From assembly GCA_016209025.1 (NCBI GenBank), contig JACQWW010000079.1, positions 1 to 41,749 of the forward strand: a stretch of 41,749 nucleotides of DNA. Reading direction: 5' to 3'. A program made the position numbers and the translations under genes. Origin of the DNA: Elusimicrobiota bacterium (GTDB lineage: Bacteria; Elusimicrobiota; Elusimicrobia; JACQPE01). The notes below the pieces were generated by a model. The model was not told the origin of the DNA and searched no databases. It saw only the letters and a program-made list of their open reading frames with translations. Shown in pieces: positions 3,951 to 32,516 of the stretch (positions are counted from its first letter, which is position 1; every line of letters starts with the position of its first letter).

Positions 3951-4483
3951 TGAATGAACAAGAAAAAAAGCTGGCTTTGGAAGAGCTGGCCGCGGTTTTG
4001 AGCAAATCGCCGATCAGTCTTTTCGCTTCATTCAAAGGGGTGACAACTCCGGAACTTTTTGAAGCGAAGAAAAAAATCAAGAAAGAAAACGCTAAATTCT
4101 GCGTCATTAAGAAATCGCTTTTGGAAAAAGCCTTCCAGAATATCGGCCTTGAAATCAGCGGTGAACAATTTTGGAAAGGCGAGGTGGCCGCCATGACGTG
4201 CTCAAATGGCGACCCGTCCCGCCTGGCCAAACTGCTGGCTCAGTGGGCCGAGCAAAATAAAAATATTGTCATTAAAGGCGGCGTAATATTATCCGGAAAA
4301 AAATGGCTTGACCGCGCCTCGGTCGAGCGGTTGGCCAAGCTCCCCTGCGCCAAGGAGCTTCAGGCCCAGCTGGTCGGCGGTTTGGCCGCTCCCATGGCGC
4401 ATCTGGCCGGCGTTTTAAATGCCACCCTGGTCCGGTTTCTGCTGGTTTTGAAGGCAGTTGAAGCAAACAAAAAAGAATATTGA
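3950..4483 (+). CDS. rplJ: 50S ribosomal protein L10
   Basis: 177 aa directly upstream of rplL, with L10-like length and a C-terminal helix '...AKELQAQLVGGLAAPMAHLAGVLNATLVRFLLVLKAV'. Confidence 0.85.
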   Translation: MNEQEKKLALEELAAVLSKSPISLFASFKGVTTPELFEAKKKIKKENAKFCVIKKSLLEKAFQNIGLEISGEQFWKGEVAAMTCSNGDPSRLAKLLAQWAEQNKNIVIKGGVILSGKKWLDRASVERLAKLPCAKELQAQLVGGLAAPMAHLAGVLNATLVRFLLVLKAVEANKKEY

Positions 4484-4555
4484 ATATGGAATGTTGAATA
4501 TTGGAAGGAAAAAAGAAAATTTTTCCCAATATTCTACATTCAATATTCTATATTC
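4475..4555 (+). repeat. Family A heptamer hairpin A1 (rplJ | rplL gap)
   Basis: 'gaatatt gaatatg gaatgtt gaatatt gg' - loop - 'cc aatattc tacattc aatattc tatattc'. The rplJ TGA stop (4481-4483) lies inside unit 1/2. Confidence 0.9.
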
Positions 4556-4579
4556 TCGCAATTTAAGGAGGTATCTGAA

Positions 4580-4975
4580 ATGCCCGTAGCGACGAAAGAG
4601 GAAATTACCGAGGCCATCTCAAAGCTGACGGTGCTTGATTTGGCGGACTTAGTCAAAATGCTGGAGGACAAATTCGGGGTCAAGGCTGTGGCGGCCGCGG
4701 CGCCGGCCGGCGCCGGACCTGCCGCCGGAGCGCCGGCTTCAGCCGTTCCGGTTGCCGAAGAAAAAACGGAATTCAGCGTGGTCCTGCAATCGGTCGGCGC
4801 CAATAAAATTCCGGTCATCAAGCTGGTCAGGGAAATAACGGGCCTGGGACTCAAGGAATCCAAAGACTTGGTTGAAGGCGCGCCAAAAACCGTCAAAGAA
4901 GGCCTTCCTAAAGCGCAGGCTGAAGAGTTGAGAAAGAAATTGACCGATGCCGGGGCCTCGGCGGAACTGAAATAA
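4580..4975 (+). CDS. rplL: 50S ribosomal protein L7/L12
   Basis: '...[19 protein letters not shown]', an Ala/Pro hinge, then '[67 protein letters not shown]'. SD 'aaggagg' lies upstream. Confidence 0.97.
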
Positions 4976-5006
4976 AAATTTTGCCGAACTTCGTTTGCAA
5001 AATTTT
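4975..5006 (+). repeat. AAAATTTT-stem hairpin F1, immediately after the rplL stop
   Basis: 'aaaattttgc cgaacttcgttt gcaaaatttt' (10-bp perfect stem). No downstream T-tract. Confidence 0.8.
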
Positions 5007-5015
5007 CACAAAAAT

Positions 5016-5058
5016 GTCCGACGGGTCCGACAGGTCTGACATGTCGGACGGGTCTGAC
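5016..5058 (+). repeat. Family B 9-mer array B1, GTCNGACNN x5 (rplL | rpoB gap)
   Basis: 'gtccgacgg gtccgacag gtctgacat gtcggacgg gtctgac'. Confidence 0.9.
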
Positions 5059-5102
5059 GCATTCGCGCTTTCGGGCGCTTTCCGATCTCATGGAGGAATT
5101 TA

Positions 5103-8100
5103 ATGGCCGTTAAAATCAAGCAGATGCTTTTTGAGAAAGCGCCTGTTTATCTCAAAGCTCCCGATCTTCTGGAACTGCAGAAAAATTCCTACGCCAACTT
5201 CCTGCAGAAAGATGTTCCCGGCGAGGCGCGCAAACTTCAGGGGCTTCAAGCCGCCTTTGTGGACCTTTTCCCCATCTCAAACGAGGATGAATCGCTTCTG
5301 CTTGAGTTTATGAATTATTCCGTGGGCGAGTCCCGTTTCTCGGACGCCGGGGAAGCTAAATTTTTCGACAAGTCCTATACGGTTCCCATCAGGGCGAATT
5401 TAAGGCTGATCCACCGCCAGACCTCCGGCAAGGTGAAAGTCATTTCCGAGCAGGAGGTCTTTTTGTGCGACCTGCCTTATATGACCGACGGCGCCTCTTT
5501 CATGATCAACGGCGCCGAGCGGGTCATCGTCAGCCAGCTTCATCGTTCCCCGGGCATTTTCTTCGAAGAAGACGAAGAAAAAAAGGTTTCGCGGTTCGGC
5601 AAGAAGCTTTTTATCGGCCGCGTCATTCCTTACCGGGGCGGCTGGATTGATTTTGAGTTCGATCTCAACAACGTTCTTTTTGCCCGCATTGACAAGCGCC
5701 GGAAGTTTCCTGCCACGGCTCTTTTGCGCGCCTGCGGCCTTGAGACGGACGAAGACATCATCAAGTTTTTTTATACCGTCAAGAATTATCCCATTTCCGC
5801 CGAGCTGCCGGCCGATCAATACGCCGGCCGGATTCTGGCGGCCGACGCCGTTGACTCTGATTCGGGCGAAGTGATTATTGAGGCGGGCCAGCGCCTGGCC
5901 AAGGACGTGCTCGCCAAAATCCAAAAGACCAAAATCAAGGAATTGGCTTTGATCGAATGGGACGAAAAAACGTCCAACGTGACGATTTTAGAGACCCTTA
6001 AAAAAGATCAGCTCAAGTCCCGCAAGGATACCCTCCATTTCCTTTATAAATACATCCGCGGCCAGGAATTCGTCATCCAGCAGCAGGCCGAAGAGTTGAT
6101 GGATAACATGTTTTTCAGCAAAAAATCAAAGCGTTATGACCTGACCCATGTGGGCCGCTACAAGATCATGAAAAAGTTCGGGCTCTTATACGAGTATTTG
6201 GAGTCCCGCAAGCAATGGAGCTTTAAAGCTCCGCCGGCCTCGCGCCGGGAATTGGCGCCCGAAGACATTATCGCCGCGATCATTTACCTGACCTTGTTAA
6301 ACGACGACCGCGAGCGGTGGGAATTTAAAGACCGGACCCTTCTTGTCGGAGTAGATGACATTGATCATCTCGGCAACCGCCGGGTGCGGGCCGTAGGGGA
6401 ACTTTTGGAAAATCAATTCCGCCTGGCTTTGACCCAGATGTCGAGAGTCATCAGGGAGCGCATGGTCCAAGCCCAGGAAAAAAGCGAACTGACCCCCCGC
6501 CAGCTCATCAACGCCTCTGTTTTGAACGGAATCTTAAGGAACTTTTTCGGAAGCTCCCAGCTTTCTCAATTCATGGACCAGATCAATCCCTTGGCGGAGC
6601 TGACCCACAAGCGCCGGCTTTCCGCCTTGGGCCCCGGCGGGCTTCAGAGAAAGCACGCCGGCTTCGAGGTCCGCGACGTGCACCATACCCACTACGGCCG
6701 CATCTGCCCCATCGAAACGCCGGAGGGTCCCAATATCGGCCTTATCACTTCCTTGGCGTTTTATGCCAGGGTCAACGAACTTGGTTTGATCGAGACGCCT
6801 TACCGCAAGGTGGAGAAAGGCCGGGCCACCGGCGAAGTCATCTATTTGACGGCCGACGAGGAAGACGAGGCTGTCATCGCCCAAGCCAACACCATGGTTG
6901 ATGAGAAGGGCAATTTGCTCGGGGACCTGGCATCGTGCCGTTATCGCGGCGATTTTCCCATGGCGGAACCAAAAAATGTCCAATATATGGATATTTCACC
7001 GACCCAGGTTTTTTCGGTGTCAACCGCTCTTTTGCCCTTTTTGGAACACGACGACGCCAACCGCGCCCTTATGGGATCGAACATGCAGCGCCAGGGTGTG
7101 CCGCTGCTTGACCCGGAAAATCCTTTGGTGGCGACCGGCGTTGAGACCAACATCGCCAAGGATTCTCAGGCGGCAATTGTGGCCAAGCGCGCCGGCCGCG
7201 CGGTTTATGTGGACGGCGAACAGATCATCATCCATACCGATGACGCCAAATCGCCGCTTGATGTCTATAAGTTCACGAAATACGAACGGTCCAACCAGGA
7301 TACGGCCGTTGATTACCATCCCATCGTGGCCCACGGCGACCGGGTGGCTTCGGGCGATCCGATCGCCGACGGTCAGTCAACAGCCAAAGGCCAGCTGGCC
7401 TTGGGCAAGAATGTTCTGGTCGCCTTTATGCCCTGGGAGGGTTATAATTTCGAAGACGCTATTTTGGTTTCGGAGCGCCTGGTCAGAGACGACGTTTTCA
7501 AATCCTTTCATATTCAGGAGTTCGAGGTCGAGGCCAGAGAAACCAAGCTCGGCCCGGAGGAGATAACCAGGGACATCCCCAATGTTTCCGCCGAAGCCCT
7601 GGCCCATCTTGATGAGCAGGGCATCGCCGTCGTGGGCACCGAGGTCAGCCATGGGGATATTCTGGTCGGCCGGGTCATTCCCAGGGGCGAAGAGCATTTG
7701 ACGCCCGAGGAGAAGCTCTTGCGCGTGATTTTCGGCAAGAAGGCGGAGGATGTCCAGGACGCCTCCCTGAGAGTTCCGCCGGGCGTGGCCGGCAAGGTCA
7801 TCAAGGTTCAGGTTTTCGTCAGAAAGGAAATCCTCGCCGCCAAGGAAAAGGAGCGATGGAGGCGCGATCTCGACGACCGGGTTCAGGAGGATTTGAAGTT
7901 TATCGAGTCTTTCAAAGACTCGTCCCTTAAGGAACTTGAGGAAAAGAAGAAACAAGGCGCGGTTTCCTCCGAGCAATACCGCCAGGAAAAGCAAGCCGTT
8001 GAGCTTGTGGCCGACAAAAGCAAGCAGGACATTCATGGTTATCGCGACCGGGAACGCGAGAGAATCAAGGCGGGCGACGAGGTGGCGGTCACCGTCAACC

Positions 8101-8876
8101 GCGTCGTCAAGGTATATGTGGCGGCCACCAGGCCTTTGCGCGTCGGCGATAAAGTGGCCGGCCGTCACGGCAATAAGGGCGTTATTTCCAAGATTTTGCC
8201 CATAGAGGATATGCCGAGGCTGCCCGACGGCACGCCGGTGGACATGGTGCTTTCACCCCTTTCCGTGCCGTCGCGCATGAACGTGGGCCAGCTTTTGGAG
8301 ACGATGTTCGGCTGGGCCGCTAAAATGTTCGATGTTCAAATGGTGACGCCGGTTTTTAACGGGGCCATGGAAACCGAGGTCAGGGAGAAGGTTAAAGAGG
8401 CGCGCGAAATGATGATGAAAAAGGGCGTGCCCGAGAAATATCTCCCCGGCGAGGACATGCGTATTACTCTCTATGACGGGCGGACCGGCCAGCCCTTCCT
8501 TGAAAAAATCACCATCGGCTATATGTACGTCATGAAGCTCATTCATGTGGTCGAGGATAAGATCCATGCCAGAAGCACCGGACCATATTCGCTTATCACC
8601 AGGCAGCCTTTGGGCGGCAAGGCCCTTTTCGGGGGCCAGCGTTTGGGCGAGATGGAGGTATGGGCCTTGGAGGCTTATGGAGCGAGTCACACCCTTCAGG
8701 AATTTTTGACGATCAAATCCGCGCATGAGTCTTTCAAAGTCCTGGTGCGCGAACTCCAGGGTTTGGGGCTCGGCGTCGAACTGCTGAGATTAGGCGAGCT
8801 TGAGCCGCAGAAGCCCCCCAAGGCCTCGGATGGCGGCGCTTTGAAAACCAAAGAAAAGGAAGAGGTGAAAAGCTGA
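5103..8876 (+). CDS. rpoB: DNA-directed RNA polymerase beta subunit (apparently lacking a conserved ~23-aa C-terminal segment, see findings)
   Basis: Motifs '[32 protein letters not shown]', '[19 protein letters not shown]', 'NMQRQGVPL', '[13 protein letters not shown]', '[18 protein letters not shown]'. Confidence 0.96.
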   Translation: [1257 protein letters not shown]

Positions 8877-13099: not shown

Positions 13100-13121
13100 A
13101 AATTTTACCAGGTAAAATTTT
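13099..13121 (+). repeat. AAAATTTT-stem hairpin F2, overlapping the rpoC stop
   Basis: 'tg aaaattttacc a ggtaaaatttt' (11-bp perfect stem, 1-nt centre). Confidence 0.8.
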
Positions 13122-13188
13122 CGTTAGTTGTTTGTCGTTAGTTGTTTGTCGTTTTGCGATTAACAACCAACGACCGACGACCAACGAA
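13122..13188 (+). repeat. Heptamer hairpin D (rpoC | rpsL gap)
   Basis: 5' arm 'cgttagt tgtttgt cgttagt tgtttgt cgttttg', 3' arm 'aacaac caacgac cgacgac caacgaa'. By eye, 20 of 25 positions are Watson-Crick and 2 more are G.U. Confidence 0.8.
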
Positions 13189-13221
13189 TCACGCGCCGAC
13201 GAGCGCCGCGAGGAGGCGTAG

Positions 13222-13647
13222 ATGCCGACCACCAGCCAACTTTTAAGAATTTTCCGCAGTAAGCGCGCCTACCGTTCCAAGTCGCCGGCTCTGCGCGAAT
13301 GTCCTCAGCGCCGCGGGGTTTGCCTGCGTGTTTACACCACCACGCCGAAAAAACCGAACTCCGCTCTGCGCAAGGTGGCCCGCGTCAAGCTGACCTCCGG
13401 CATAGAGGTGACGGCCTATATCCCGGGCATCGGCCACAATCTTCAGGAACACTCGATCGTCTTGGTGCGCGGCGGCCGGGTAAAAGATCTTCCTGGGGTG
13501 CGCTATCATATCATCCGGGGCGTTTTCGACTGCAGCGGCGTCGATGGCCGCCGGCAGGGCCGCTCCAAATACGGGGCCAAGCAGCCCAAGGAAACGGCAG
13601 CCGGCAAAACGGCCGCGGCGCCGGCCGGGGCAGGAGCTACAAAGTGA
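13222..13647 (+). CDS. rpsL: 30S ribosomal protein S12 (with an Ala-rich C-terminal tail)
   Basis: 'MPTTSQLLR...[70 protein letters not shown]'. Confidence 0.97.
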
Positions 13648-13723
13648 ATATTGAATATGGAATATTGAATATTGGGAAGAATAAAAAATTTCTCCAATAT
13701 TCTACATTCAACATTCTACATTC
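13646..13723 (+). repeat. Family A heptamer hairpin A2 (rpsL | rpsG gap)
   Basis: 'gaatattgaatatggaatattgaatattggg' - loop - 'ctccaatattctacattcaacattctacattc'. It begins on the last 2 nt (13646-13647) of the rpsL TGA (13645-13647). Confidence 0.9.
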
Positions 13724-13743
13724 ACCCCTTTCTTGGAGGTTTT

Positions 13744-14214
13744 ATGCCTAGACGATCCATAGAACGCCGTCCCCCGCCTCAATCGGACGTGCGGTTTTCC
13801 AGCCAACTGGTAAGCCGCCTGATCGGAAAACTGAATTTTACCGGCAAAAAAAACAAGGTCACGCGGATCGTTTACGAGGCGATGGATTTGATCAAGTCCA
13901 AAACCGGCGAGGATCCGGCTGTTGTTTTATCGCGGGGGGTTGAGAACTGCCGTCCTCTGCTTGAAACCAAGCCCCGCCAAGTCGGCGGCGCCACCTATCA
14001 AGTTCCCATCGAGGTGGATTCTTACCGGGGAGAGACGCTCGCCATGCGCTGGATTATTGACTATGCCCGCGCGAGAAAAGGCCAGCCCATGGCCATAAAA
14101 ATAGCCGAAGAAATCATTCAGGCGTCGAGAAAGGAAGGCACGGCTTTTAAAAAACGCGAGGAAATGCATAAAATGGCCGAATCGAACAGGGCGTTCGCCC
14201 ATTACCGATGGTGA
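13744..14214 (+). CDS. rpsG: 30S ribosomal protein S7
   Basis: 'MPRRSIERR...', 'VGGATYQVPIEV', 'KKREEMHKMAESNRAFAHYRW'. I chose the ATG at 13744 after SD 'ggagg'. The longer track ORF (13672) runs through a repeat element. Confidence 0.93.
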   Translation: MPRRSIERRPPPQSDVRFSSQLVSRLIGKLNFTGKKNKVTRIVYEAMDLIKSKTGEDPAVVLSRGVENCRPLLETKPRQVGGATYQVPIEVDSYRGETLAMRWIIDYARARKGQPMAIKIAEEIIQASRKEGTAFKKREEMHKMAESNRAFAHYRW

Positions 14215-14220
14215 AAGAAT

Positions 14221-14306
14221 GACGCGGCGACGGGGAGACGCGGTGACGCGGGGAAAGTTTGGTTTTGGATTTTTTAATCTCCGCGTCCCCGCGTCCCCGT
14301 GTCTCC
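14221..14306 (+). repeat. Octamer hairpin C (rpsG | fusA gap)
   Basis: 5' arm 'gacgcggc gacgggga gacgcggt gacgcggg g', loop 'aaagtttggttttggattttttaat', 3' arm 'ctccgcgtcc ccgcgtcc ccgtgtct cc'. The arms are largely complementary. Confidence 0.85.
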
Positions 14307-14321
14307 GAGTCAGGAGCATCG

Positions 14322-16406: not shown

Positions 16407-16425
16407 GTCCGACAGGTCGGACAGG
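16407..16425 (+). repeat. Family B 9-mer array B2, 2 units (fusA | tuf gap)
   Basis: 'gtccgacag gtcggacag g', immediately after the fusA TAA. Confidence 0.7.
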
Positions 16426-16444
16426 TTAAAGGAGGAAAAACAAA

Positions 16445-17641
16445 ATGGCAAAAGGAAAGTTTGAGCGGACGAAACCACATGTCAATGTGGGCACTATCGG
16501 ACACGTTGATCACGGGAAGACTCTGCTTACATCCGCGATCACCAAGGTGCTGGCAAAGAAAGGATTTTCACAGGCCAAGGAATACGCCGACATCGCCAAG
16601 GGCGGCGTAGTGCGCGACGCTTCGAAGATTTTGACCGTGGCGGTTGCCCATGTGGAATATGAGACTCAAAATCGCCATTATGCCCATATTGACTGTCCCG
16701 GGCACGCCGACTACATTAAAAACATGATCACCGGCGCGGCTCAGATGGACGGCGCCATTTTAGTGGTGAGCGCCCCCGACGGCCCAATGCCGCAGACAAG
16801 AGAGCACGTGCTTTTGGCCCGGCAGGTCAATGTGCCCCATATCGTCGTTTTTTTGAACAAATGCGATCTTGTCGACGACAAAGAGCTTCTTGATTTGGTG
16901 GAAATGGAGGTTCGTGATCTTTTGAAAAAATATGAGTTCCCAAGCGAAAAGATCACCATCATCCGCGGCAGCGCCATGAAAGCCCTGGCCGGCGACACGG
17001 GCGAGCTCGGAGAGCCCGCTATTTGGAAGCTTGTGGAGGCTTTGGACGCGAGCATCCCCGAGCCCAAGCGCGACGTGGACAAGCCGTTTTTGATGGCGGT
17101 TGAGGATGTTTTTTCGATCACGGGCCGCGGCACGGTCGCCACGGGCCGGGTCGAACGCGGCAAGGTCAAGATCGGAGACACTCTGGAGATCGTGGGAATC
17201 CAGGAGACGAAAAAGACCGTGGCCACCGGCGTCGAGATGTTTCAAAAGACGCTTGACGAAGCCATTGCCGGCGACAATATCGGGGTGCTTTTGCGCGGCA
17301 TCGAGAAAGACGGCGTGGAGCGGGGGCAGGTTTTGGCGGCCCCGGGTTCCATTACCCCGCACAAGGTTTTCAAGGGACAGATCTATGTCTTGAACAAGGA
17401 CGAAGGCGGCCGTCATACGCCGTTTTTTAAAGGCTACCGGCCGCAGTTCTATTTCAGGACAACCGACGTGACCGGCGAGGTCGAGCTTCCTGCCTCGGTC
17501 GAGATGATCATGCCCGGCGACAATATAGAGATCACTGGGCGGCTTATTTCGCTTATCGCCATGGAGAAAGGCGTACGCTTCGCCATCAGAGAGGGCGGCA
17601 AAACAGTCGGCGCCGGAGTGGTGTCGGATATCATCGAATGA
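16445..17641 (+). CDS. tuf: Elongation factor Tu
   Basis: '[17 protein letters not shown]', '[28 protein letters not shown]', 'NKCDLV'. SD 'aaggagg' lies upstream. Confidence 0.98.
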
Positions 17642-17645
17642 AGCT

Positions 17646-17729
17646 GGAATATAGAATGTGGAATATAGAATATTGGAGCAAGAAAGACCTCTTTGTTTTC
17701 CTACATTCAACATTCAATATTCAATATTC
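17646..17729 (+). repeat. Family A heptamer hairpin A3 (tuf | rpsJ gap)
   Basis: 'ggaatatagaatgtggaatatagaatattgg' - loop - 'cctacattcaacattcaatattcaatattc'. Confidence 0.9.
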
Positions 17730-17740
17730 TGAGTAATTCT

Positions 17741-18112: not shown

Positions 18113-18134
18113 AAATTTTACCCGGTAAAATTTT
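18112..18134 (+). repeat. AAAATTTT-stem hairpin F3, overlapping the rpsJ stop
   Basis: 'tg aaaattttacc c ggtaaaatttt', nearly identical to F2. Confidence 0.8.
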
Positions 18135-18150
18135 CAGGTGCGCAAGAACA

Positions 18151-18192
18151 TCTGACCCGTCAGACATGTCTGACTCGTCTGACAAGTCTGAC
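18151..18192 (+). repeat. Family B 9-mer array B3, 5 units (rpsJ | rplC gap)
   Basis: 'tctgac ccgtcagac atgtctgac tcgtctgac aagtctgac'. Confidence 0.9.
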
Positions 18193-18229
18193 GCGCGTGC
18201 GTTTAATTTTTTGCGAAGCGAGGAATTCC

Positions 18230-22164: not shown

Positions 22165-22167
22165 GAA

Positions 22168-22581: not shown

Positions 22582-22597
22582 AAATGGATAAATTTTT

Positions 22598-23163: not shown

Positions 23164-23164
23164 A

Positions 23165-23533
23165 ATGGTTCAGCTTCGTTCGATGCTTCAGGTGGCGGAT
23201 AATACGGGCGCCAGGAAATTGATGGTATTTCATGTCGCCGGAGGCTCGCAAAGGCGCTACGCCTCTTTAGGCGATATCGTCGTCGGCTCCGTCAAGGCAG
23301 CCGCGCCCGATGCAGCCGTGAAAAAGGGCGAGGTCGTCAAGGCTGTTGTCGTGCGCGTCAGCCATGCCTGCCGGCGTCCCGACGGCAGCCGCGTGCGCTT
23401 TGATGATAATGCCGGCTGCCTTATTGACGATGCCGGCAATCCGAGAGGGACCAGGGTTTTCGGGCCGGTGGCCCGCGAACTGCGCGATAAAAATTTTTTA
23501 AAAATCATTTCTCTCGCTCCTGAGGTGGTATGA
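23165..23533 (+). CDS. rplN: 50S ribosomal protein L14
   Basis: '[24 protein letters not shown]', '[30 protein letters not shown]'. Confidence 0.97.
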
Positions 23534-23538
23534 AGGCT

Positions 23539-23622
23539 GGAATATAGAATGTTGAATATTGAATATAGGAACACAGGCGGTCTTTTTTCTTCCCTATATT
23601 CCATATTCCATATTCCATATTC
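23539..23622 (+). repeat. Family A heptamer hairpin A4 (rplN | rplX gap)
   Basis: 'ggaatatagaatgttgaatattgaatatagg' - loop - 'cctatattccatattccatattccatattc'. Confidence 0.9.
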
Positions 23623-23643
23623 TCGGCAACACGAGGCATTCCA

Positions 23644-23958
23644 ATGGCTTTAGGCATTAAAAAGAAGGATACGGTGGCGGTGCTTTCCGGCGAGGATAAG
23701 GGTAAGCGCGGTGAAGTGGTCAGGATTTTTCCGGATAAAGGCCGGGCCGTCGTTGCCAAGATCAATCTTGTCAAAAAACACGTGCGCCCGACTCGCGAAA
23801 AGAAGGGCGGCATCGAAACAATCGAGGCGCCGATCGCCCTGTCAAAGCTTCAGCTGATTTGCCCGAAATGCAGTCAGCCTATAAGGCCGAAAATGCAATT
23901 TTTAGCCGACGGCACAGGCATGCGGGTTTGCCGCAAATGCGGAGAGCAAATCCTGTGA
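23644..23958 (+). CDS. rplX: 50S ribosomal protein L24 (KOW domain plus a C-terminal CxxC...CxxC segment)
   Basis: 'IKKKDTVAVLSGEDKGKRGEVVRIF', 'INLVKKHVRP', C-terminus 'CPKCSQPI...VCRKCGEQIL'. Confidence 0.93.
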   Translation: MALGIKKKDTVAVLSGEDKGKRGEVVRIFPDKGRAVVAKINLVKKHVRPTREKKGGIETIEAPIALSKLQLICPKCSQPIRPKMQFLADGTGMRVCRKCGEQIL

Positions 23959-23974
23959 AAATTTTGCCAAGAAC

Positions 23975-24017
23975 GTCCGACCCGTCAGACCTGTCCGACA
24001 TGTCAGACATGTCGGAT
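23975..24017 (+). repeat. Family B 9-mer array B4, 5 units (rplX | rplE gap)
   Basis: 'gtccgaccc gtcagacct gtccgacat gtcagacat gtcggat'. It contains the hairpin 'ccgacatg tcaga catgtcgg'. Confidence 0.9.
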
Positions 24018-24036
24018 GAGCGGAGCGAGGCGTAAG

Positions 24037-24639: not shown

Positions 24640-24661
24640 AAATTTTTCGGGAGGAATTTTA

Positions 24662-24847: not shown

Positions 24848-24855
24848 CTCAAAGG

Positions 24856-24971
24856 GAGAATGTTGAATGTTGAATATAGAATATAGAATGAAAAAAACGA
24901 GAGATAAAAGCCATTTTTGCATTTTGTGTTTCCGTTTCCGTCCTACATTCTACATTCCATATTCTACATTC
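24856..24971 (+). repeat. Family A heptamer hairpin A5, long-loop variant (rpsN | rpsH gap)
   Basis: 'gagaatgttgaatgttgaatatagaatatagaatg' - ~50 nt - 'cctacattctacattccatattctacattc'. The 5' flank 'caaagggagaatgttgaatgttgaat' is shared with A6. Confidence 0.88.
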
Positions 24972-24983
24972 GAGGTCTAAAAA

Positions 24984-25373
24984 ATGGATCCCATAAGCGA
25001 TATGCTTACGCGCATGAGGAATGCCTTGAAAGCCAAAAAAGAGATTGTTGAAATTCCACACTCGCGTATAAAAAGGGAGATTGCCCGGATTTTGCGGGAA
25101 GAGGGCTATATCTCGAATTTTAGAGTATTCGAGGACGGAAAGGCGGGCATACTTAAAATACTTTTGCGTTATACGAAAGAAAAAGAACCGGCGATTTTTA
25201 AGATTGAGCGGGTTTCCAGGCCTTCCTGCCGGGTATATTGCAATTGGAGGGGCATGGGGGGTGTCCGGCAAGACATGGCAACCATGATTCTTTCTACGCC
25301 GAAAGGCGTCGTGACGGCGCGCCAAGCCAAGGACTTAAAGATCGGCGGTGAGGTTCTGTTGAAGGTATGGTAA
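24984..25373 (+). CDS. rpsH: 30S ribosomal protein S8
   Basis: 'MDPISDMLTRMRNA', 'ILSTPKGVVTARQAKDLKIGGEVLLKVW'. Confidence 0.96.
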   Translation: MDPISDMLTRMRNALKAKKEIVEIPHSRIKREIARILREEGYISNFRVFEDGKAGILKILLRYTKEKEPAIFKIERVSRPSCRVYCNWRGMGGVRQDMATMILSTPKGVVTARQAKDLKIGGEVLLKVW

Positions 25374-25379
25374 CAAAGG

Positions 25380-25489
25380 GAGAATGTTGAATGTTGAATG
25401 TTGAATATAGGATGAAAACAACGAGGGAGGAAAGCCGTTTTTGTATTTTTCATTCCTGTCCTACATTCTACATTCCATATTCTACATTC
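25380..25489 (+). repeat. Family A heptamer hairpin A6, long-loop variant (rpsH | rplF gap)
   Basis: 'gagaatgttgaatgttgaatgttgaatatagg' - ~45 nt - 'cctacattctacattccatattctacattc'. Confidence 0.88.
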
Positions 25490-25500
25490 GAGGTATTCCA

Positions 25501-26106
25501 ATGAGCCGTTTGGGTAAAAAACCCGTTATTTTACCTTCGGGCGTCGAGGCGCTCATTAATGCCGAAGCCCGCCTTATCGGGATGAAGGGGCCCAAGGGCG
25601 CGCTTGAGTGGAAATACCCCGGCGGCATAAACGTTCAGAAAATCCAGGACGCTTCCGGGGTCAGGCTGCGCATCGAACCTCAAAAATTACCCCAGGCGGC
25701 AAAAGAAATTGACCGCAGGATCAAGGCGGCTTGGGGACTGGCGCGTTCCCGCATCGAGGCCATGGTTCATGGGGTGGCGCAGGGTTTTTCCAAAACCCTT
25801 GAAATTCACGGCGTCGGATTCAAAGTTAAACAAGAAGGCCGGCAGCTGGTTTTTTCATTGGGCTCGACTCATCCGATCGTCTATCAAATGCCGGCCGGCA
25901 TAAACGCCGGCATTGACTCCAAGCAGACGCAGCTGATTATTTCCGGCTGCGATAAGGAACTGGTCGGTTCGGCGGCAAGCGCCCTGCATGCCCTGAAGCC
26001 TCCGGAGCCTTATCAAGGCAAGGGCGTCAGATATTCAGGTGAATACATAATCCGCAAGGCCGGTAAAACAGCGGCGGCGGCCGGCGCCGGAGCAACCAAG
26101 AAATGA
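25501..26106 (+). CDS. rplF: 50S ribosomal protein L6
   Basis: '[16 protein letters not shown]', '[10 protein letters not shown]', '[23 protein letters not shown]'. The ATG at 25501 is the first start after repeat A6. Confidence 0.94.
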
Positions 26107-26122
26107 AAATAGAGGTGAAAGG

Positions 26123-26476: not shown

Positions 26477-26499
26477 TTTCAAACGAAGCGAGGTTTAAG

Positions 26500-27099
26500 G
26501 TGGCAGAAAAAGACGAGCAGCTTGCAATGACGCCGGAAGTCGCCGCGAACGGCGAGCCGGAGTTGGAGAAATTAGATTTGGAAAAAGAGGAGATACCAGC
26601 GCCGGTTGAGCCGGCCGCCGCGGCCAACATCGTTTTAAAAGAAACGGTGGTGGCGATCAACCGCGTCACTAAAGTCGTCACCGGGGGGAAACGCATGGCT
26701 TTCACCTCCTTGCTTGTCGTCGGCGACGGCTGCGGGCAGGTCGGCATCGGCAAGGGCAAGGCGCGGGACGTTCAAATGGCGATAATCAAAGCGGCGTATC
26801 AGGCCAAGAAACACCTGCATAAAGTGTCGCTGGTTGATACGACTATTCCCCATTCTATCGTCGGGATCTTCGGGGCGGCCCGCGTTCTTCTTCGGCCGGC
26901 GGCCCCGGGCACCGGGGTCATCGCCGGCGGGCCGGTTCGAGCCGTTCTTGAGGCTTGCGGCGTTAAAGATATTTTGACGAAAAGTCTTGGAACATCCAAC
27001 GTATATAACGTCGTTTACGCCACCTTGGACGGCTTGAAGCGCCTGGATACAAAAGAAAGCGTCGCAAAACGCCGGGGAAAAAAATCGGAAGAAATATGA
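26500..27099 (+). CDS. rpsE: 30S ribosomal protein S5 (with an acidic N-terminal extension)
   Basis: '[39 protein letters not shown]', '[35 protein letters not shown]'. GTG lies 6 nt after 'cgaagcgagg'. Confidence 0.95.
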
Positions 27100-27569
27100 C
27101 CTCTAAGCCGCCTCCAGTCGTCAACCTTTCCAATTTGCGGCCGGCCAAAGGTTCCCGGCACCGCCGCAAGCTCCTGGGCCGCGGCGAAGGGTCCGGCCAC
27201 GGGCAAACGGCGACGCGCGGCATGAAGGGCCAGGGATCGCGTTCCGGAGATACCAGAATGATGGGTTTTGAGGGCGGGCAGATGCCGCTTCTCAGACGCG
27301 TGCCCAAGCGCGGCTTTAACAATGCGGTTTTTCGCCGGTCATGGGCCGTCGTCAATTTGGAGACCATTGAAAAAAATTTTCAATCGGGCGACACGGTTGA
27401 TCCGGTTCGTCTGCGTCAGCGCGGCATTCTTCGCCCCGGCGGCGCTGCGGTGAAGATTCTGGCTCAAGGACGGCTGACTAAAAATCTGGCCGTGGAGGCG
27501 CACGCCGCCAGCCGGCAAGCTCAAGAGGCGATCATCAAAGCCGGCGGCACTTTGAAAATTCTTAAATAA
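27096..27569 (+). CDS. rplO: 50S ribosomal protein L15
   Basis: '[41 protein letters not shown]', '[17 protein letters not shown]'. It overlaps the rpsE stop, so there is no room for rpmD. Confidence 0.95.
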
Positions 27570-28909
27570 TGGACCAAATCGTCAATCTTTTTAAAATTCC
27601 GGATTTACGGCGCCGTCTGCTTTTTAGCGCCGGAGCCCTGGCGGTTTACCGTATCGGCGCCGCCATTCCTTTGCCCGGCATCAATACCGAGGCTCTGCGC
27701 GTGCTTTTCGAGCAGCACCGCGGTTCTTTTTTGGGTTTTTTGGACATTTTTTCCGGAGGGGCGTTGTCCAAGTTTTCCATTTTAACGCTGGGCACCATTC
27801 CTTATATCAACTCCTCGATCATCATGAGCCTGCTTCAAGGCGCCCATGTCATCCCCTGGCTTGAAAGGATTTCGCGCGAAGGAGAGACCGGGCGCAAGAG
27901 AATCCAGCAGATCACCAGATACCTGACCGTCTGCCTGGCTTTGTTTCAATCGTTCGCCATTGCCATCGGATTTTCCAGCACTCAGGGGCCGGGCAGCGCG
28001 CCTATTATCATGAATGCGACCATGGGTTTTTACCTGATGACGGCCTTAACCTGGACGGCCGGAGCCATTTTTGTCATGTGGATGGGCGAGCAGATTACGG
28101 AATTCGGGATCGGCAACGGCATTTCCCTGATCATTTTTACCGGCATCATCGCCCGTTTCCCGGCCGCGGTCAGCGATGTCGTGCGTTTGGTGCGGGTGGA
28201 GGAGTTGTCGCTTTTGCTGGCGCTTATCCTAATCGCTCTTGTCGTCGTTGTCTGCGGTCTTGTCGTCTGGGTCGAAACCGCCCAGCGCCAGATTCCCGTT
28301 CAATACGCCAAAAGAATGGTCGGCCGAAAGATGATGGGCGGAGCCAGCACTTATTTGCCGATCAAGCTCGATCCCAGCGGCGTGGTGGCCGTTATTTTTG
28401 CGTCAGCCGTGATTCAGGCGCCCATGTTTTTGAGCCAGCTCGCCCCGAATTCCGCGGTCTCGGGATTTATCCAAAAGGTTTTTGGGGGGTTTGACACGGG
28501 CCAGCCGTTATTTGCAATGCTCTTTGGCGGGCTGATCATCTTTTTTTGTTACTTTTATAATTCCATCGCCATCAATCCCCAGGATCTGGCCGAGAACCTG
28601 AAAAAGTGGGGAGGTTTTATCCCGGGAATACGGCCGGGAAAGGCCACGGCCGAATACATCGAATGGATCGTTGAGCATCTGACGCTTTTCGGGGCGCTCT
28701 TTGTGGTCGCGATCGCGGTTTTGCCGGATTGCCTGCGCCGTTTTTTTACCGCTCCGTTTTTTTTCGGGAGCACCTCGCTTTTGATCGTGGTCGGCGTGGC
28801 TTTGGATACCATCGGACAATTAGAAGCGCATCTCTTGATGCGCCATTACGAAGGTTTCATGAAGCAGGGCCGTATCAAAGGCCGCTGGTTCAACGTGGGG
28901 CAATCATGA
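27569..28909 (+). CDS. secY: Preprotein translocase subunit SecY
   Basis: 446 aa polytopic protein, 'LRRRLLFSAGALAVYRIGAAIPLPGIN', 'GGALSKFSILTLGTIPYINSSIIMSLL', 'GRKRIQQITRYLTV', 'ENLKKWGGFIPGIRPGKATAEYI'. Confidence 0.96.
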   Translation: MDQIVNLFKIPDLRRRLLFSAGALAVYRIGAAIPLPGINTEALRVLFEQHRGSFLGFLDIFSGGALSKFSILTLGTIPYINSSIIMSLLQGAHVIPWLERISREGETGRKRIQQITRYLTVCLALFQSFAIAIGFSSTQGPGSAPIIMNATMGFYLMTALTWTAGAIFVMWMGEQITEFGIGNGISLIIFTGIIARFPAAVSDVVRLVRVEELSLLLALILIALVVVVCGLVVWVETAQRQIPVQYAKRMVGRKMMGGASTYLPIKLDPSGVVAVIFASAVIQAPMFLSQLAPNSAVSGFIQKVFGGFDTGQPLFAMLFGGLIIFFCYFYNSIAINPQDLAENLKKWGGFIPGIRPGKATAEYIEWIVEHLTLFGALFVVAIAVLPDCLRRFFTAPFFFGSTSLLIVVGVALDTIGQLEAHLLMRHYEGFMKQGRIKGRWFNVGQS

Positions 28910-28931
28910 TAATGAAAAAAGAGGAGGCGTC

Positions 28932-29579
28932 ATGAGAATTATTTTATTAGGCGCGCCGGGTTCGGGTAAAGGCACCCAGGCCGTGCGGCTTGCCGGGCGC
29001 TTTAAAATTCCTCACGTATCCACCGGGGACATTTTTCGAGATGAGATCGCCCGGCAGACGCCGCTCGGCCTTGAGGTCCAGGAATGCATCTCATCGGGAC
29101 GTTTGGTTTCGGATAATTTGACGTTGAGCGTCATTTTCAAGCGTCTGGAGCGGCCCGATTGCGCGGACGGTTTCCTTCTGGATGGTTTTCCCAGGACCAC
29201 GGCGCAGGCCGAGGGCTTGAGCGCCTATTTGGATAAAAAGTCGCTGAAGCTTGACCGGGTTTTTTATCTGGATGTTCCGGAAGAGGTTTTGGTCAACCGG
29301 CTTTCAGCCAGGCGGTCTTGCCCCGGCTGTCAGGCTGTTTATAATTTAGTCTCCAATGCGCCTAAAACCGCTTCGGTCTGCGATCGCTGCGGCGGCAAGC
29401 TGGTCGGCCGGGCCGACGACGAGCCCAACACCGTTAGAAAGCGCCTGATGGTTTATCAGGAGCTGACCGCCCCCCTTATCGCTTATTATAAAACCGCCGC
29501 CTCTTTTTCCGGCATTGACGCGTCGCGCTCAGTGGATGAGATAGTGGAGCAGATTTCAGCCGCCTTGGAGGAAAAGTGA
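28932..29579 (+). CDS. adk: Adenylate kinase (with zinc-type lid)
   Basis: 'MRIILLGAPGSGKGTQA', 'GFLLDGFPRT', lid 'CPGCQAVYN...CDRCGGKLVGRADD'. Confidence 0.96.
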   Translation: MRIILLGAPGSGKGTQAVRLAGRFKIPHVSTGDIFRDEIARQTPLGLEVQECISSGRLVSDNLTLSVIFKRLERPDCADGFLLDGFPRTTAQAEGLSAYLDKKSLKLDRVFYLDVPEEVLVNRLSARRSCPGCQAVYNLVSNAPKTASVCDRCGGKLVGRADDEPNTVRKRLMVYQELTAPLIAYYKTAASFSGIDASRSVDEIVEQISAALEEK

Positions 29580-30364
29580 GCCGGACCGCTGCGCCGGTCA
29601 TCAATGTCAAAAGTAAGCGGGAAATCGCCAAAATCCGGCAGGCGTGCCGCATTGCCGCGGCGACTTTGGCCGAACTGGTCAAGATCGTCAAGCCGGGCGT
29701 GAGCACCGCCATGATTGACGAAGCGGCCCAGGATTTTCTAAGCCGTTATCCGGGCGCGCGCGCGGCTTTTTACGGCTATCGCGGTTTTCCTGGGCATGTC
29801 TGCGTTTCGATCAATGCCGAGGTTGTTCACGGAGTTCCGCGAAAGAACCGAATAGTGCGCGAGGGGGACCTGGTCAGCCTCGATTGGGGCGTAAGCTATG
29901 ACGGGTTTTTCGGAGACTGCGCCGCCACTGCGGCCGCCGGCCGAATCAGCGAATCAGCCGAGCGCCTCGTGGCTCTGACCAGACAGTGCCTTGACAGGGC
30001 CATAAATGTCGTCAAGCCGGGGGCGGCGGTGGGCGATATCGGCCATGCCATTCAAAGCCATGCCCAATCAAACGGCGCCAATGTCATCAGGGATTATGTG
30101 GGACATGGAATCGGCCGCAGCCTTCATGAAGAGCCGGCCATTCCCAATTGGGGAGAGCCGGGCAAAGGGGCCAGGCTCATAGCCGGCATGACGATCGCCG
30201 TCGAGCCGATGGTGACGCTGGGCAGCGGCGCCGTTCAAACGGACGGCGACGGATGGACCGCGAAAACCAAAGACAACGCCCTGACGGCTCATTTTGAGCA
30301 CACTCTTTTGGTCACGGATGAGGCGGCGGAGATTTTAACGCTTAACGGACACTTAAATGACTAA
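29576..30364 (+). CDS. map: Methionine aminopeptidase type I
   Basis: '[12 protein letters not shown]', '[20 protein letters not shown]', '[15 protein letters not shown]', 'MTIAVEPM', '[10 protein letters not shown]'. Confidence 0.95.
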
Positions 30365-30575
30365 AGAGGAGAAAATTATTTTGGAAGGGGTCGTAACGGA
30401 AGCTTTGCCCAACGCCATGTTCCGGGTTAACGTGGGCAATAATCGCATCTGCCTGGCGCATGTTTCCGGTAAAATGCGCATGCATTTTGTGCGGATTTTG
30501 CCTGGAGACAAAGTGCGCGTCGAGCTTTCTCCCTATGATTTGACGCGCGGCCGCATCACCTATAGATTGGAATGA
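30357..30575 (+). CDS. infA: Translation initiation factor IF-1
   Basis: '[64 protein letters not shown]'. Confidence 0.97.
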
Positions 30576-30604
30576 GGAAAATTTTACGATGTGCTCATCG
30601 AATA

Positions 30605-30637
30605 TCCGACCCGTCAGACCTGTCAGACATGTCCGAC
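30605..30637 (+). repeat. Family B 9-mer array B5, 4 units (infA | rpmJ gap)
   Basis: 'tccgaccc gtcagacct gtcagacat gtccgac'. Confidence 0.9.
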
Positions 30638-30656
30638 GATCGAAGCGAGGTGTAAT

Positions 30657-30770
30657 GTGAAGGTTCGCAGTTCGATCAAGCCGATTTGCCAGAAATGCAA
30701 GGTGATTCGGCGCCACGGAGTCGTAAGGATAATTTGCAAAAATCCAAGGCACAATCAGAGGCAAGGATGA
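30657..30770 (+). CDS. rpmJ: 50S ribosomal protein L36
   Basis: Hand translation from the GTG at 30657 gives '[37 protein letters not shown]'. It is absent from the ORF track (below the size cutoff). GTG lies 6 nt after 'cgaagcgagg'. Confidence 0.92.
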
Positions 30771-30774
30771 AAGC

Positions 30775-30859
30775 GAGAATGTGGAATGTTGAATATGGAA
30801 TATTGGGGAGGAATGACTTTCTATTTCTTCCAGCATTCAACATTCAATATTCAATATTC
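30775..30859 (+). repeat. Family A heptamer hairpin A7 (rpmJ | rpsM gap)
   Basis: 'gagaatgtggaatgttgaatatggaatattgggg' - loop - 'ccagcattcaacattcaatattcaatattc'. Confidence 0.9.
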
Positions 30860-30890
30860 ACGTTCATGAATTTTGTCAATGGAGGTTTAA

Positions 30891-31316
30891 ATGGCTAGAG
30901 TAGCCGGCGTTGACTTGGCCGCTCATAAACGGGTGGATGCGGCTTTGATCCGTATCTACGGGATCGGACCGAACAATGTCCGCGTTATTTTAAAAAACGC
31001 CCAAATACCCGGCGAGACCCGCGTTAAAAATTTGAACGAAGCCCAATTGGCGGCTCTTAACGCGGTTATCGCCAAAGATTTTCGCGTTGAGGGCGAATTG
31101 CGCCGGGATATTGAAGCCGATATCCGCCGCTATATTGAAATCGGATGCTATCACGGCCAGCGTCACCGCCGCAATCTGCCGGTCCGCGGGCAGAGAACGC
31201 GCACTAATGCCCGCACCAGGCGCGGTTCAAGGCGGACGGTGGGAGCCGTCAAGCCGGGCATCAAAGAGGCGCCTGCCCAGCCGGCTGCTTCCAAACAACC
31301 GGCCAAGAAGCCATGA
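30891..31316 (+). CDS. rpsM: 30S ribosomal protein S13
   Basis: 'MARVAGVDL', 'IYGIGPNN', 'IEIGCYHGQRHRRNLPVRGQRTRTNARTRRG'. Confidence 0.96.
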   Translation: MARVAGVDLAAHKRVDAALIRIYGIGPNNVRVILKNAQIPGETRVKNLNEAQLAALNAVIAKDFRVEGELRRDIEADIRRYIEIGCYHGQRHRRNLPVRGQRTRTNARTRRGSRRTVGAVKPGIKEAPAQPAASKQPAKKP

Positions 31317-31339
31317 AAATTTTACAGTGAGGTGCTTTA

Positions 31340-31750
31340 ATGGCAACTGAGAGAAAACCTGAATCAGGACCTTCAAGACGCCAAGACAGGCGCAAGTTCG
31401 GCGCTATCGAGCAGGCCAGGGCCTATATTCATTCGTCGTTCAACAATACGATCGTGACATTCACCGATGAGCGGGGGCAGGTGTTGATTTGGGCGAGCGC
31501 CGGCCTATGCGGTTTTAAAGGGACAAAAAAAGGCACGCCTTATGCCGCCCAAATTGCCGCCGAGCGGGTGGCCAAACGGGCTTTGGAAATCGGCGTGCGC
31601 AGCGTTTCGGTTTTTGTCAGGGGGCCGGGGCCGGGCAGGGAAGTCGCCATCCGCACGCTTCACGCGGCGGGGCTGAGAATTTTATCCATCAAGGATATCA
31701 CACCATTGCCCCACAACGGCTGCCGGCCGCCCAAAGCGAGAAGAGTATGA
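31340..31750 (+). CDS. rpsK: 30S ribosomal protein S11
   Basis: '[28 protein letters not shown]', '[17 protein letters not shown]', '[21 protein letters not shown]'. Confidence 0.97.
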
Positions 31751-31762
31751 ACGAGGTGTTTT

Positions 31763-32398
31763 ATGTCTAATCTTCACGCGCCGGTTTGCCGGCGCTGCCG
31801 CAGAGAAGGCGCGAAGCTTTTTCTTAAGGGTGAAAAATGTTTCATTAAATGCGTTGTCGAAAAGAGGCCTTTTGCGCCGGGCCGGGCCGGCAAGTCAAGA
31901 ACACGCAAAAAAACGACGGATTACGGCATTCGCCTGCGGGAAAAGCAAAAGCTTAAAAAAATGCTGGGAATCAATGAAGCTAAAATGAAGCTTTATTATG
32001 AAAGAGCCCAGCGGATGCCCGGCAGAACCGGCGAGAATCTTTTAAAACTCGTGGAGATGAGGCTCGACAACGTTGCACGGCGCCTTGGGCTGGCCACCAG
32101 TCCCAGGTTTGCCAGGCAGTTGGTCGGCCACGGCCATGTTTTAATCGGCGGCAGGCGCATAACGGTTCCTTCCTATGAGGTCAAGCCTGGAGACATTCTG
32201 GAGCTTAAAGGCTTGAAGAATAATTTTTTTGTGGATCTTTCCCGGCAGAATTTCGAGCGCCGCGGCGGCGTTTTGCCGGGCTGGCTCAACTGGGACAGCG
32301 CTTCGCAGAAAGGCCGGGTTTTGCGTCTGCCGGAAAAAGGCGAGCTTTCTTTTCCGATTAATGATCAATATATCGTGGAGTTTTATACCCGAAGATAG
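31763..32398 (+). CDS. rpsD: 30S ribosomal protein S4
   Basis: 'CRRCRREGAKLFLKGEKC', 'YGIRLREKQKLKKM', 'LEMRLDNVARRLGLATSPRFARQLVGHGHVLIGGRRITVPSYEVKPGD'. Confidence 0.96.
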   Translation: MSNLHAPVCRRCRREGAKLFLKGEKCFIKCVVEKRPFAPGRAGKSRTRKKTTDYGIRLREKQKLKKMLGINEAKMKLYYERAQRMPGRTGENLLKLVEMRLDNVARRLGLATSPRFARQLVGHGHVLIGGRRITVPSYEVKPGDILELKGLKNNFFVDLSRQNFERRGGVLPGWLNWDSASQKGRVLRLPEKGELSFPINDQYIVEFYTRR

Positions 32399-32403
32399 CA
32401 AGA

Positions 32404-32516
32404 GAGAATGTCGAATGTGGAATATGGAATATGGGGTGAAAAAAAGAAAAAAAAGAAAATGCGAGGGCCGCTTTTATTCTTTTCGTCCAATATTCTACAT
32501 TCCATATTCTATATTC
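32404..32516 (+). repeat. Family A heptamer hairpin A8, long-loop variant (rpsD | rpoA gap)
   Basis: 'gagaatgtcgaatgtggaatatggaatatgggg' - ~45 nt A-rich loop - 'ccaatattctacattccatattctatattc'. Confidence 0.88.

Follow-up and report, generated by a model that had tools for sequence, protein, structure and literature searches.

Facing heptamer arrays in the ribosomal-protein gene cluster of an uncultured Elusimicrobia bacterium, and the small reading frames that cross them

Introduction

How can hairpin-forming repeats fill one junction after another of the ribosomal-protein operons, which are among the most constrained stretches of bacterial genomes? The question is raised by contig JACQWW010000079.1 from the metagenome-assembled genome of an uncultured Elusimicrobia bacterium (GCA_016209025.1), the entire length of which (41,749 nucleotides, nt) is the window analysed here. 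After a 23S-5S rRNA segment, the genes of the window follow in the order rplJL-rpoBC-rpsLG-fusA-tuf-S10-spc-alpha, all on the + strand, and eight of the junctions hold copies of one heptamer-built hairpin element, called family A in the following. Hairpins of about 100 nt have come to occupy at least a dozen junctions in this lineage over a short evolutionary distance. An earlier note, made from the sequence alone, had described the eight copies and proposed that a ribosome terminating at the upstream stop codon opens the base of the hairpin and so exposes the ribosome-binding site of the next gene. The frames found across the elements suggest a different answer, in which such inserts are tolerated because each carries a reading frame that would pass the ribosome on.

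Anatomy of the family A elements

Family A comprises eight copies (A1 to A8), counted on the single 41.7-kb contig of the source genome. Each element has a length of about 80-115 nt and consists of four GAATRTN units, a loop of about 20-60 nt, and four NAYATTC units, which gives arms of 28 nt with a period of 7 nt. An exact scan for four consecutive GAATRT units and then four AYATTC units placed the 5' arrays at 4475, 13646, 17647, 23540, 24858, 25382, 30777, and 32406, and the 3' arrays at 4529, 13697, 17703, 23596, 24945, 25463, and 32490; the 3' arm of A7 has three exact units from 30840 and the variant AGCATTC as its innermost unit. The eight copies are thereby confirmed where the earlier note had put them, with differences of 0-2 nt because flank bases had been counted there. 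With up to three mismatches allowed in the four-unit pattern, 31 of 31 matches fell within the eight loci (0.00 expected from 100 shuffles), and the window holds no further copy by this measure. The sequence of an independent Logan contig is 100% identical to the window as far as the first arm of A2, where it breaks; family A is therefore not an assembly artefact. An Rfam scan of the window at the gathering score returned the 23S and 5S rRNA only and no leader or repeat family, and a tRNA scan returned zero tRNAs.

All eight copies lie on the + strand between co-directional ribosomal-protein, tuf, or rpoA genes, and Pfam agrees with the gene names given earlier at every one of them. A1 (4475..4555), which has an A/T-rich loop, separates rplJ from rplL (L10 and L12), A2 (13646..13723) separates rpsL from rpsG (S12 and S7), A3 (17647..17729) tuf from rpsJ (EF-Tu and S10), and A4 (23540..23622) rplN from rplX (L14 and L24). 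A5 (24858..24971), with a fifth, degenerate 5' unit (GAATGAA), lies between rpsN and rpsH (S14 and S8), and A6 (25382..25489), the 3' arm of which is identical to that of A5, between rpsH and rplF (S8 and L6). The last two are A7 (30777..30859) between rpmJ and rpsM (L36 and S13) and A8 (32406..32516) between rpsD and rpoA (S4 and RpoA). A5, A6, and A8 form a long-loop subfamily (114, 108, and 111 nt), as had been noticed before, with the shared 5' flank (c)aaagggaga or caagagaga; the flank of A7 has aagcgaga in common with them.

The position relative to the flanking genes is equally regular. The copies begin on the upstream stop codon in A1 (TGA 4481-4483, inside units 1 and 2) and in A2 (TGA 13645-13647, overlapping unit 1), and 5-10 nt after it in A3-A8, so that all eight are 0-10 nt from a stop. 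From the end of the 3' arm to the next start codon there are 24, 20, 11, 21, 12, 11, 31, and 25 nt in A1 to A8, a range of 11-31 nt that lies inside the 10-35 nt previously claimed.

Small reading frames across the elements

At each of the eight junctions, one mini open reading frame (mini-ORF) or two in succession, translated from a start codon that overlaps or follows the upstream stop, cross the hairpin on the + strand and end within a few nt of the next start, as ATGA, as TAATG, or with a short overlap. The mini-ORF of A1 (4491..4589, ATG, 32 codons) starts 8 nt past the rplJ stop and overlaps the rplL start (4580) by 10 nt, and that of A2 (13644..13751, GTG, 35 codons) begins as GTGA on the rpsL stop and ends 8 nt into rpsG (start 13744). 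ATGA on the upstream stop opens the frame of A3 (17638..17736, 32 codons), which ends 4 nt before the rpsJ ATG (17741), and that of A7 (30767..30898, 43 codons), which ends 8 nt into rpsM (start 30891). In A8 (32408..32545, 45 codons) the ATG is in unit 1, 10 nt past the rpsD stop and behind AAGAGAGA, and the TGA overlaps the rpoA ATG as ATGA (start 32542). The remaining three copies take two steps. In A4 (23530..23653) a first ORF of 5 codons (23530-23547), with ATGA on the rplN stop, is followed 2 nt past its own stop by the ATG of a second (23549-23653, 34 codons), which ends 10 nt into rplX (start 23644). In A5 (24860..24980) the first ORF (24860-24886) has its ATG in unit 1, 13 nt past the rpsN stop and behind AAAGGGAGA, and the second (24888-24980, 30 codons) ends with a TAA 3 nt before the rpsH ATG (24984). 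In A6 (25367..25504) the first ORF (25367-25390) leads to a second of 37 codons (25391-25504), the TGA of which forms ATGA with the ATG of rplF (start 25501); the junction can also be crossed by way of 25384-25404 and then 25412-25504. The first relay ORF of the long-loop subfamily would make use of its conserved purine-rich flank (AAAGGGAGA-ATG). The copies differ in how they reach a relay, some by ATGA or GTGA, others by an ATG within the element or in two steps.

Family A has a relay path in 7/8 copies with ATG only and in 8/8 with ATG, GTG, or TTG, against 0/8 in antisense and 0.6 and 1.7 in shuffles. Across four genomes, 22 of 31 hairpin junctions have an ORF that starts between -4 and +15 nt from the upstream stop and ends within 12 nt of the next start, compared with 2 for the mirrored antisense strand and 3.0 for shuffles. 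The enrichment persists under tighter limits with ATG only (18/31; antisense 1, shuffles 1.4) and when two consecutive ORFs and GTG or TTG starts are allowed (23/31; antisense 3, shuffles 3.8). Within the sense strand it depends on the frame: of those that have an ATG at the upstream stop, 19/24 contain no stop codon across the gap, compared with 27/69 of the others (p = 0.00085), and among these open frames 17/19 with that ATG and 12/27 without it end at the next start (p = 0.002). No enrichment is seen in short gaps that have no such hairpin (4/11, 3.4 expected). Among junctions fetched after the hypothesis had been formed, a relay was present in 5/6 tandem-unit hairpins and in 0/5 real gaps without them; one more entry among these gaps turned out to be coding sequence of rpsL and was left out. 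One candidate signal, ATGA (an A before TGA), was rejected as specific to hairpins, being equally common at short junctions (14/20 vs 14/23); the motif is a general feature of gene ends in these genomes.

We consider the chances about even that family A is a dispersed palindromic heptamer repeat which is tolerated in essential operons because a relay ORF keeps translational coupling intact, in the manner of the mycobacterial interspersed repetitive units (MIRU). The relay would begin at one or two mini-ORFs on or just after the upstream stop, started by ATGA, by GTGA, or by an ATG in a GAATGT unit that a purine-rich tract precedes. Having reached the end of the upstream gene, a ribosome would re-initiate on the mini-ORF, melt the hairpin by translating through both arms, terminate at or very near the next start, and re-initiate there. 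The element would then relay coupling instead of breaking it, and the repeat would either carry the relay ORF or have been filtered for one. In E. coli, the autoregulation of ribosomal proteins is established to pass from gene to gene by translational coupling, and the relay reading fits that dependence. The review PMC12548453 lists Baughman and Nomura 1983 and Lindahl et al. 1989 among its references.

Several observations weigh against the relay. Its translation is predicted from sequence statistics alone. The 31 junctions are not independent events, because copies of one family share ancestry, and the number of independent repeat families behind them is about seven. Frames without a stop span the gap about as often in sense (21 junctions) as in antisense (20), so the relay signal rests on the placement of starts and stops. 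Three copies (A4, A5, and A6) need the two-step path, and in A4, A5, and A8 the first start has to lie 10-16 nt past the stop, looser than the classical overlap. Six of the eight downstream genes have a GGAGG or GAGG of their own and may initiate independently. In the wider class of such hairpins in other phyla, described below, the excess is weaker, a relay path being found at 10/75 crudely called junctions among the matches listed (2.1 expected). In addition, neither a target-site duplication nor a means of spread was found for family A, as detailed in the following section.

The same junctions bear on the model of the earlier note, in which the terminating ribosome opens only the base of the stem and thereby uncovers the downstream ribosome-binding site. 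Its first step is plausible, given stops 0-10 nt from the stem base in 8/8 copies and the footprint of the ribosome on mRNA, and in the Yersinia ERIC element a comparable ribosome-induced opening exposes an RNase E site (PMC2229807). The second step is not supported: the downstream Shine-Dalgarno sequences and start codons lie 11-31 nt beyond the stems and are unsequestered in the predicted folds, so opening the base would not expose them. Base opening also leaves the sense-specific bridging ORFs unexplained, and we regard this model as very doubtful. The translational coupling that the note had proposed has a strong sequence signature, but its form differs, since the mini-ORFs cross the whole hairpin; coupling is probably involved, by translation through the stem.

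Turnover among relatives and wider distribution

Relatives were reached via S8 and S7 homologues. In the closest of them, GCA_016180815.1 (S7 85% identical), the gaps at the A1-A4 junctions are short and empty (23, 41, 0, and 37 nt), and TAA stands at five hairpin junctions where the window has TGA. Two further relatives (S8 65-71% identical) have no element at the A5 and A6 junctions. Other relatives show an equal architecture built of other units (GCTGAGT, GGTCAAAAG, GTGAATAAA, and AGTCCAA) at partly different junctions, and GCA_016207685.1 carries family A itself at rplV|rpsC, rplN|rplX, and rpsG|fusA. Empty junctions in close relatives and other units elsewhere indicate that such elements are gained and lost quickly. 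Family A is a recent, lineage-specific gain, and its copies are not conserved regulators of particular ribosomal-protein genes. Population variants that would follow micro-evolution were not found, independent assemblies of the relatives being identical.

The picture is thus of two facing four-heptamer arrays that would have spread recently into eight junctions of the ribosomal-protein supercluster. Candidate processes for the origin and spread of the stems are slippage, palindrome correction, and the copying of whole junction cassettes. Comparison of occupied junctions with the empty ones of the closest relative, which are not alignable, gave no consistent target-site duplication, and no transposase or other means of spread was identified for family A in this contig.

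Two side observations concern junction sequences in these relatives. The cassettes of GCA_964357255.1 (L124) share both flanks, (C)ATGAAGAAAGG on the 5' side and ATTAATTTTATG on the 3' side, at many junctions (for example 5684-5747, 6453-6536, and 14222-14288), and the downstream genes there have no Shine-Dalgarno sequence, as if whole stop-to-start junction cassettes had been copied. A split ribosome-binding site bridged by the hairpin was considered for this genome; the window does not call for it, most of its downstream genes being equipped with a Shine-Dalgarno sequence. In the closest relative, the rplN|rplX junction (L251, 19503-19539), otherwise empty, holds GAATAATGTTGAATTT, which resembles one or two family A units and could be the seed or the remnant of an element.

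Outside the phylum, a scan for four GAATRT units in one genome per species found such arrays in many phyla, 12-14 of them in hairpin arrangement among the matches listed. Hairpins of (GAATGTT)n/(AACATTC)n or (GAATATC)n/(GATATTC)n units, often with the upstream stop inside the first unit, were seen in Acidobacteriota, Planctomycetota, Patescibacteria, Chloroflexota, and Bacteroidota, including Segatella copri (L002, L028, L040/L181, L055, L062, L068, L071, L087, and L111/L140/L200/L221), and the hairpin pattern occurs at at least 120 loci in metagenome contigs. A 33-nt pattern specific to the arm of A5, A6, and A8 had 0 matches in the metagenome contigs. By crude gene calls, the neighbouring genes are co-directional for 56 of the matches listed, convergent for 14, and divergent for 15, and a further 11 matches lie inside called ORFs; in the 56 co-directional contexts the upstream stop is at a median distance of 20.5 nt and the next start at one of 61 nt. 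Proximity to a ribosomal-protein cluster was seen for only 2 of about 240 loci among the matches listed (L037 inside a ribosomal-protein operon and L185 directly after map). The link of family A to ribosomal-protein genes reflects the content of the contig and is not a property of the repeat class.

Pairing within the stems

The predicted RNA folds of all copies are long, interrupted stems (z = -2.9 to -5.6), in which the 28-nt arms form segments of 6-7 bp split by single mismatches and reach a double-stranded length of about two turns or more. Stems of this kind are what inverted tandem repeats give. RNAalifold on family A returned a covariation term of -0.19, with nearly all pairs invariant, and the variable R/Y positions pair as A-U, G-C, G-U, and A-C without a compensating pattern. 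Arms are as complementary between copies (23.1/28) as within one (22.6/28; permutation p = 0.87), and left-arm similarity declines with distance along the contig. Folding in sense gave no advantage over antisense, in a test where G-U pairs of one strand are A-C mismatches of the other, either for 29 Elusimicrobia hairpins (mean -0.6 kcal/mol) or for 43 hairpins of other taxa (-0.9 kcal/mol, p = 0.27). The earlier note had held that a lack of conserved or compensatory pairing across copies, beyond what repeat symmetry gives, would count against a stem selected as RNA; no such pairing was found, and with interchangeable arms and no strand bias the result speaks against that selection. A covariance model of the eight copies was rejected as a definition of the family, since any heptamer hairpin gives a match, with little difference between the strands, even one with the unit GCTGAGT.

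That many unrelated units all occur as inverted pairs argues that complementarity itself is generated or kept, and a process at the DNA level would yield an equal outcome for inverted pairs. The stem would follow from the inverted-repeat build, probably made and kept symmetrical as DNA, and the candidate processes are slippage combined with palindrome correction and the copying of a master element. A further reading is a palindrome that acts at the DNA level alone or is selfish, without consequence for RNA or translation, the mini-ORFs being inherited accidents of a master copy. The interchangeable arms, the indiscriminate covariance model, the quick gain and loss, and the near equality of stop-free frames on the two strands are all as such a palindrome would have them. 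It does not account for bridging ORFs on the sense strand in about seven unrelated unit families with gaps of varied length, for their tie to the frame with a start at the upstream stop, or for the different solutions by which the copies arrive at them, and we judge it decidedly unlikely.

Hairpins directly after stop codons also recall intrinsic terminators or attenuators, and internal promoters might likewise set expression along an operon; in other taxa some of the hairpins do lie between convergent genes. Yet between 13100 and 33000, 0/40 terminator-like and 0/25 promoter-like consensus sites fall within an element, the 3' arms have no following T-run, and the stems are A+T-rich and not G+C-rich. 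Eight terminators inside essential operons would be costly, and in other taxa divergent and convergent contexts are equally frequent (15 and 14) among the matches listed. A role in setting expression by these means is highly improbable. Because the operons are co-directional and tightly packed and the elements have no promoter-like or terminator-like sites, transcription of the elements together with their operons is the natural assumption.

Other hairpin families on the contig

Tandem Repeats Finder and folding of all gaps showed that nearly every intergenic gap of more than about 35 nt in the window is a hairpin of tandem short units. The junction rpoC|rpsL (13121-13190) has a 7-mer hairpin of TCGTTAGTTGTTTG and AACGACC-type units, spanned by a 41-codon ORF with ATGA on the rpoC stop and its end exactly at the rpsL start. 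An 8-mer hairpin, four GACGCGGN followed by four CCGCGTCC, occupies rpsG|fusA (14215-14321). The long fusA ORF that starts there with TTG (14259) probably has the wrong start, a GTG at about 14322 being the likelier one; with that start, the junction has a mini-ORF of 36 codons (ATG 14219) that connects the rpsG stop with the start of fusA. A family with a 9-nt period, GTCYGACNN (inverted partners GTCCGAC and GTCGGAC), forms hairpins in other junctions, at 5016-5062, 16407-16426, 18150-18194, 23974-24016, 30606-30640, 33968-34006, 34977-35016, and 40908-40942, some of them non-ribosomal (rplQ|mreB, mreB|mreC, and after a DUF2344 gene). A small hairpin, GAAAATTTT-(3-15 nt)-AAAATTTTC, sits on or right after stop codons, where it is often read ATG AAA ATT TTA and onward, and usually lies 5' of a second, tandem-unit hairpin. 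It is common to the window (4976-5010, 13100-13125, 18113-18139, 23959-23975, 30578-30600, and 33955-33970) and two relatives (L121 6622-6650; L124 9914-9945, 11090-11115, and 16653-16690).

Four further hairpins, of GAAGTCT/AGACTTC heptamers, are found in and around the 23S rRNA gene (99-238, 881-1010, 1554-1700, and 2899-2979), and the first three are near-identical (92-95%). One site is the loop of helix 45 (Rfam model position 1218), at another a hairpin loop is replaced (model positions 1756-1771), and of the remaining two, one adjoins the helix 25 region and one is in the 23S-5S spacer. In appearance the four resemble the intervening sequences that RNase III excises in other bacteria.

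RNase III sites that serve as comparison are the early intercistronic sites of T7, Correia elements, and 23S intervening sequences. By analogy, the interrupted stems of family A, of about 28 bp, could be RNase III substrates at which the long polycistronic mRNA is cut into units, leaving protective stem remnants, and such processing could add to the relay. Long stems are predicted for all copies, and near-identical heptamer hairpins stand at 23S intervening-sequence-like sites of the same contig; because similar hairpins sit in the 23S gene, processing would be a plausible added role. RNase III is the enzyme that removes known intervening sequences at helices 25 and 45, a stem of 28 bp is described for the Coxiella element (PMC4990558), and Correia hairpin RNAs have been proposed as RNase III targets (PMC2229807). 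The lack of a sense-strand folding advantage in the 29 and 43 hairpins, the lack of covariation, and the fact that close relatives manage without the elements all point the other way, and RNA processing or stability is an unlikely explanation of family A.

Bases 1-95 of the window are 100% identical to bases 262-356 (internal 23S sequence), and 23S domain I (Rfam model positions 14-565) is covered by just 53 nt within 1-356; together these make the 5' end of the contig look collapsed or chimeric at the repeat. Between the 5S rRNA and rplJ, at the place expected for rplK-rplA, lies a 262-aa ORF (3162-3950) with a signal-peptide-like N-terminus, a C-terminal Phe, and a stop that overlaps the rplJ start. 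It has zero Pfam or NCBIfam matches, and a similar unannotated ORF lies upstream of rplJ in two relatives (L251 and L253).

Implications

If family A persists by relaying ribosomes, the idea derived from MIRU, that repeats survive by coupling, would extend to a distant phylum and to hairpin-forming repeats built of heptamers, and would provide a testable rule for which repeats can invade operons. The intergenic heptamer palindromes would also be connected with the intervening sequences of rRNA. A bolder extension, which we consider unlikely, is that the elements are fast-turnover translated hairpin cassettes, mobile stop-stem-start modules that replace whole junctions and hand ribosomes on through a stem that re-forms. 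Both the stability of ribosomal-protein mRNA (through RNase III access) and downstream translation would then depend on translation upstream, and the same process would seed the 23S intervening sequences. On the practical side, such elements break short-read assemblies and yield spurious small genes or wrong start calls.

Comparison with known systems

Intergenic heptamer arrays are represented in cyanobacteria by the STRR heptamers. Heptamers are the commonest long simple-sequence repeats in bacteria according to Mrazek et al. 2007, as cited in PMC4679880. The closest likeness to family A is found in the (GGGAATC)n arrays of Xanthomonas campestris and X. citri (Rehm et al. 2015; PMC4692102), which mostly have four units, form 70-75 convergent pairs, are about 90% intergenic at a mean of 28 nt from the upstream ORF, and are not conserved in position between species. 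They share with family A the 7-nt unit, the four-unit array, the convergent pair as a potential stem-loop, and an intergenic position nearer the upstream ORF. Their unit is G-rich and has been studied as a G-quadruplex former, whereas GAATRTN has no G-tract, so that the two are of the same kind but of different families; in addition, no bridging ORFs are reported for Xanthomonas, the phylum is another, and the distribution there is genome-wide and here comes from one contig. The TAACTGA heptamers of marine Beggiatoaceae are likewise intergenic and occur in ribosomal-protein operons among other places (PMC4679880), but they are direct repeats just 5' of starts, with one inverted set reported, whereas family A is always an inverted pair after a stop.

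Among dispersed palindromes, REP/BIME, ERIC, and Correia/NEMIS elements are, like family A, short, imperfect, intergenic, and co-transcribed with their neighbours (PMC2229807, PMC2817692), co-transcription of family A being assumed as above. REP, known for an associated RAYT (IS200/IS605-like) transposase and for more than 100 copies per genome, differs in its 20-40-nt palindrome with a GTAG head; family A has a length of 80-115 nt, no GTAG head, and no cognate transposase in view. Unlike a MITE, family A has a 7-nt internal period and no identified terminal repeat or target duplication, although its arms could serve as terminal repeats. The 23S intervening sequences at helices 25 and 45 resemble it as extended stem-loops on helix tips, the 28-bp stem of the Coxiella element (PMC4990558) matching the 28-nt arms, but family A occupies mRNA junctions and leaves such 23S sites to its sister GAAGTCT family.

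For the reading frames, the precedent is MIRU (Supply et al. 1997), in which, as summarised in PMC12548453, an internal ORF is coupled to the flanking gene by overlapping start and stop codons (-4 nt spacing), a coupling thought in that summary to minimise the cost of insertion. Both elements are intercistronic in operons, and both have an internal ORF with ends that overlap or abut the flanking stop and start, translation of the ORF being predicted in the case of family A. MIRU consists of 40-100-bp direct tandem units in variable number, whereas family A has one element per junction with its 7-nt repetition confined to the arms and one to two relay ORFs that cross a long stem; a sequence relation is not expected. 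Each component is of a kind already known, and what is new here is the combination of paired heptamer arrays and REP-like repeats with probable coupling of the MIRU type.

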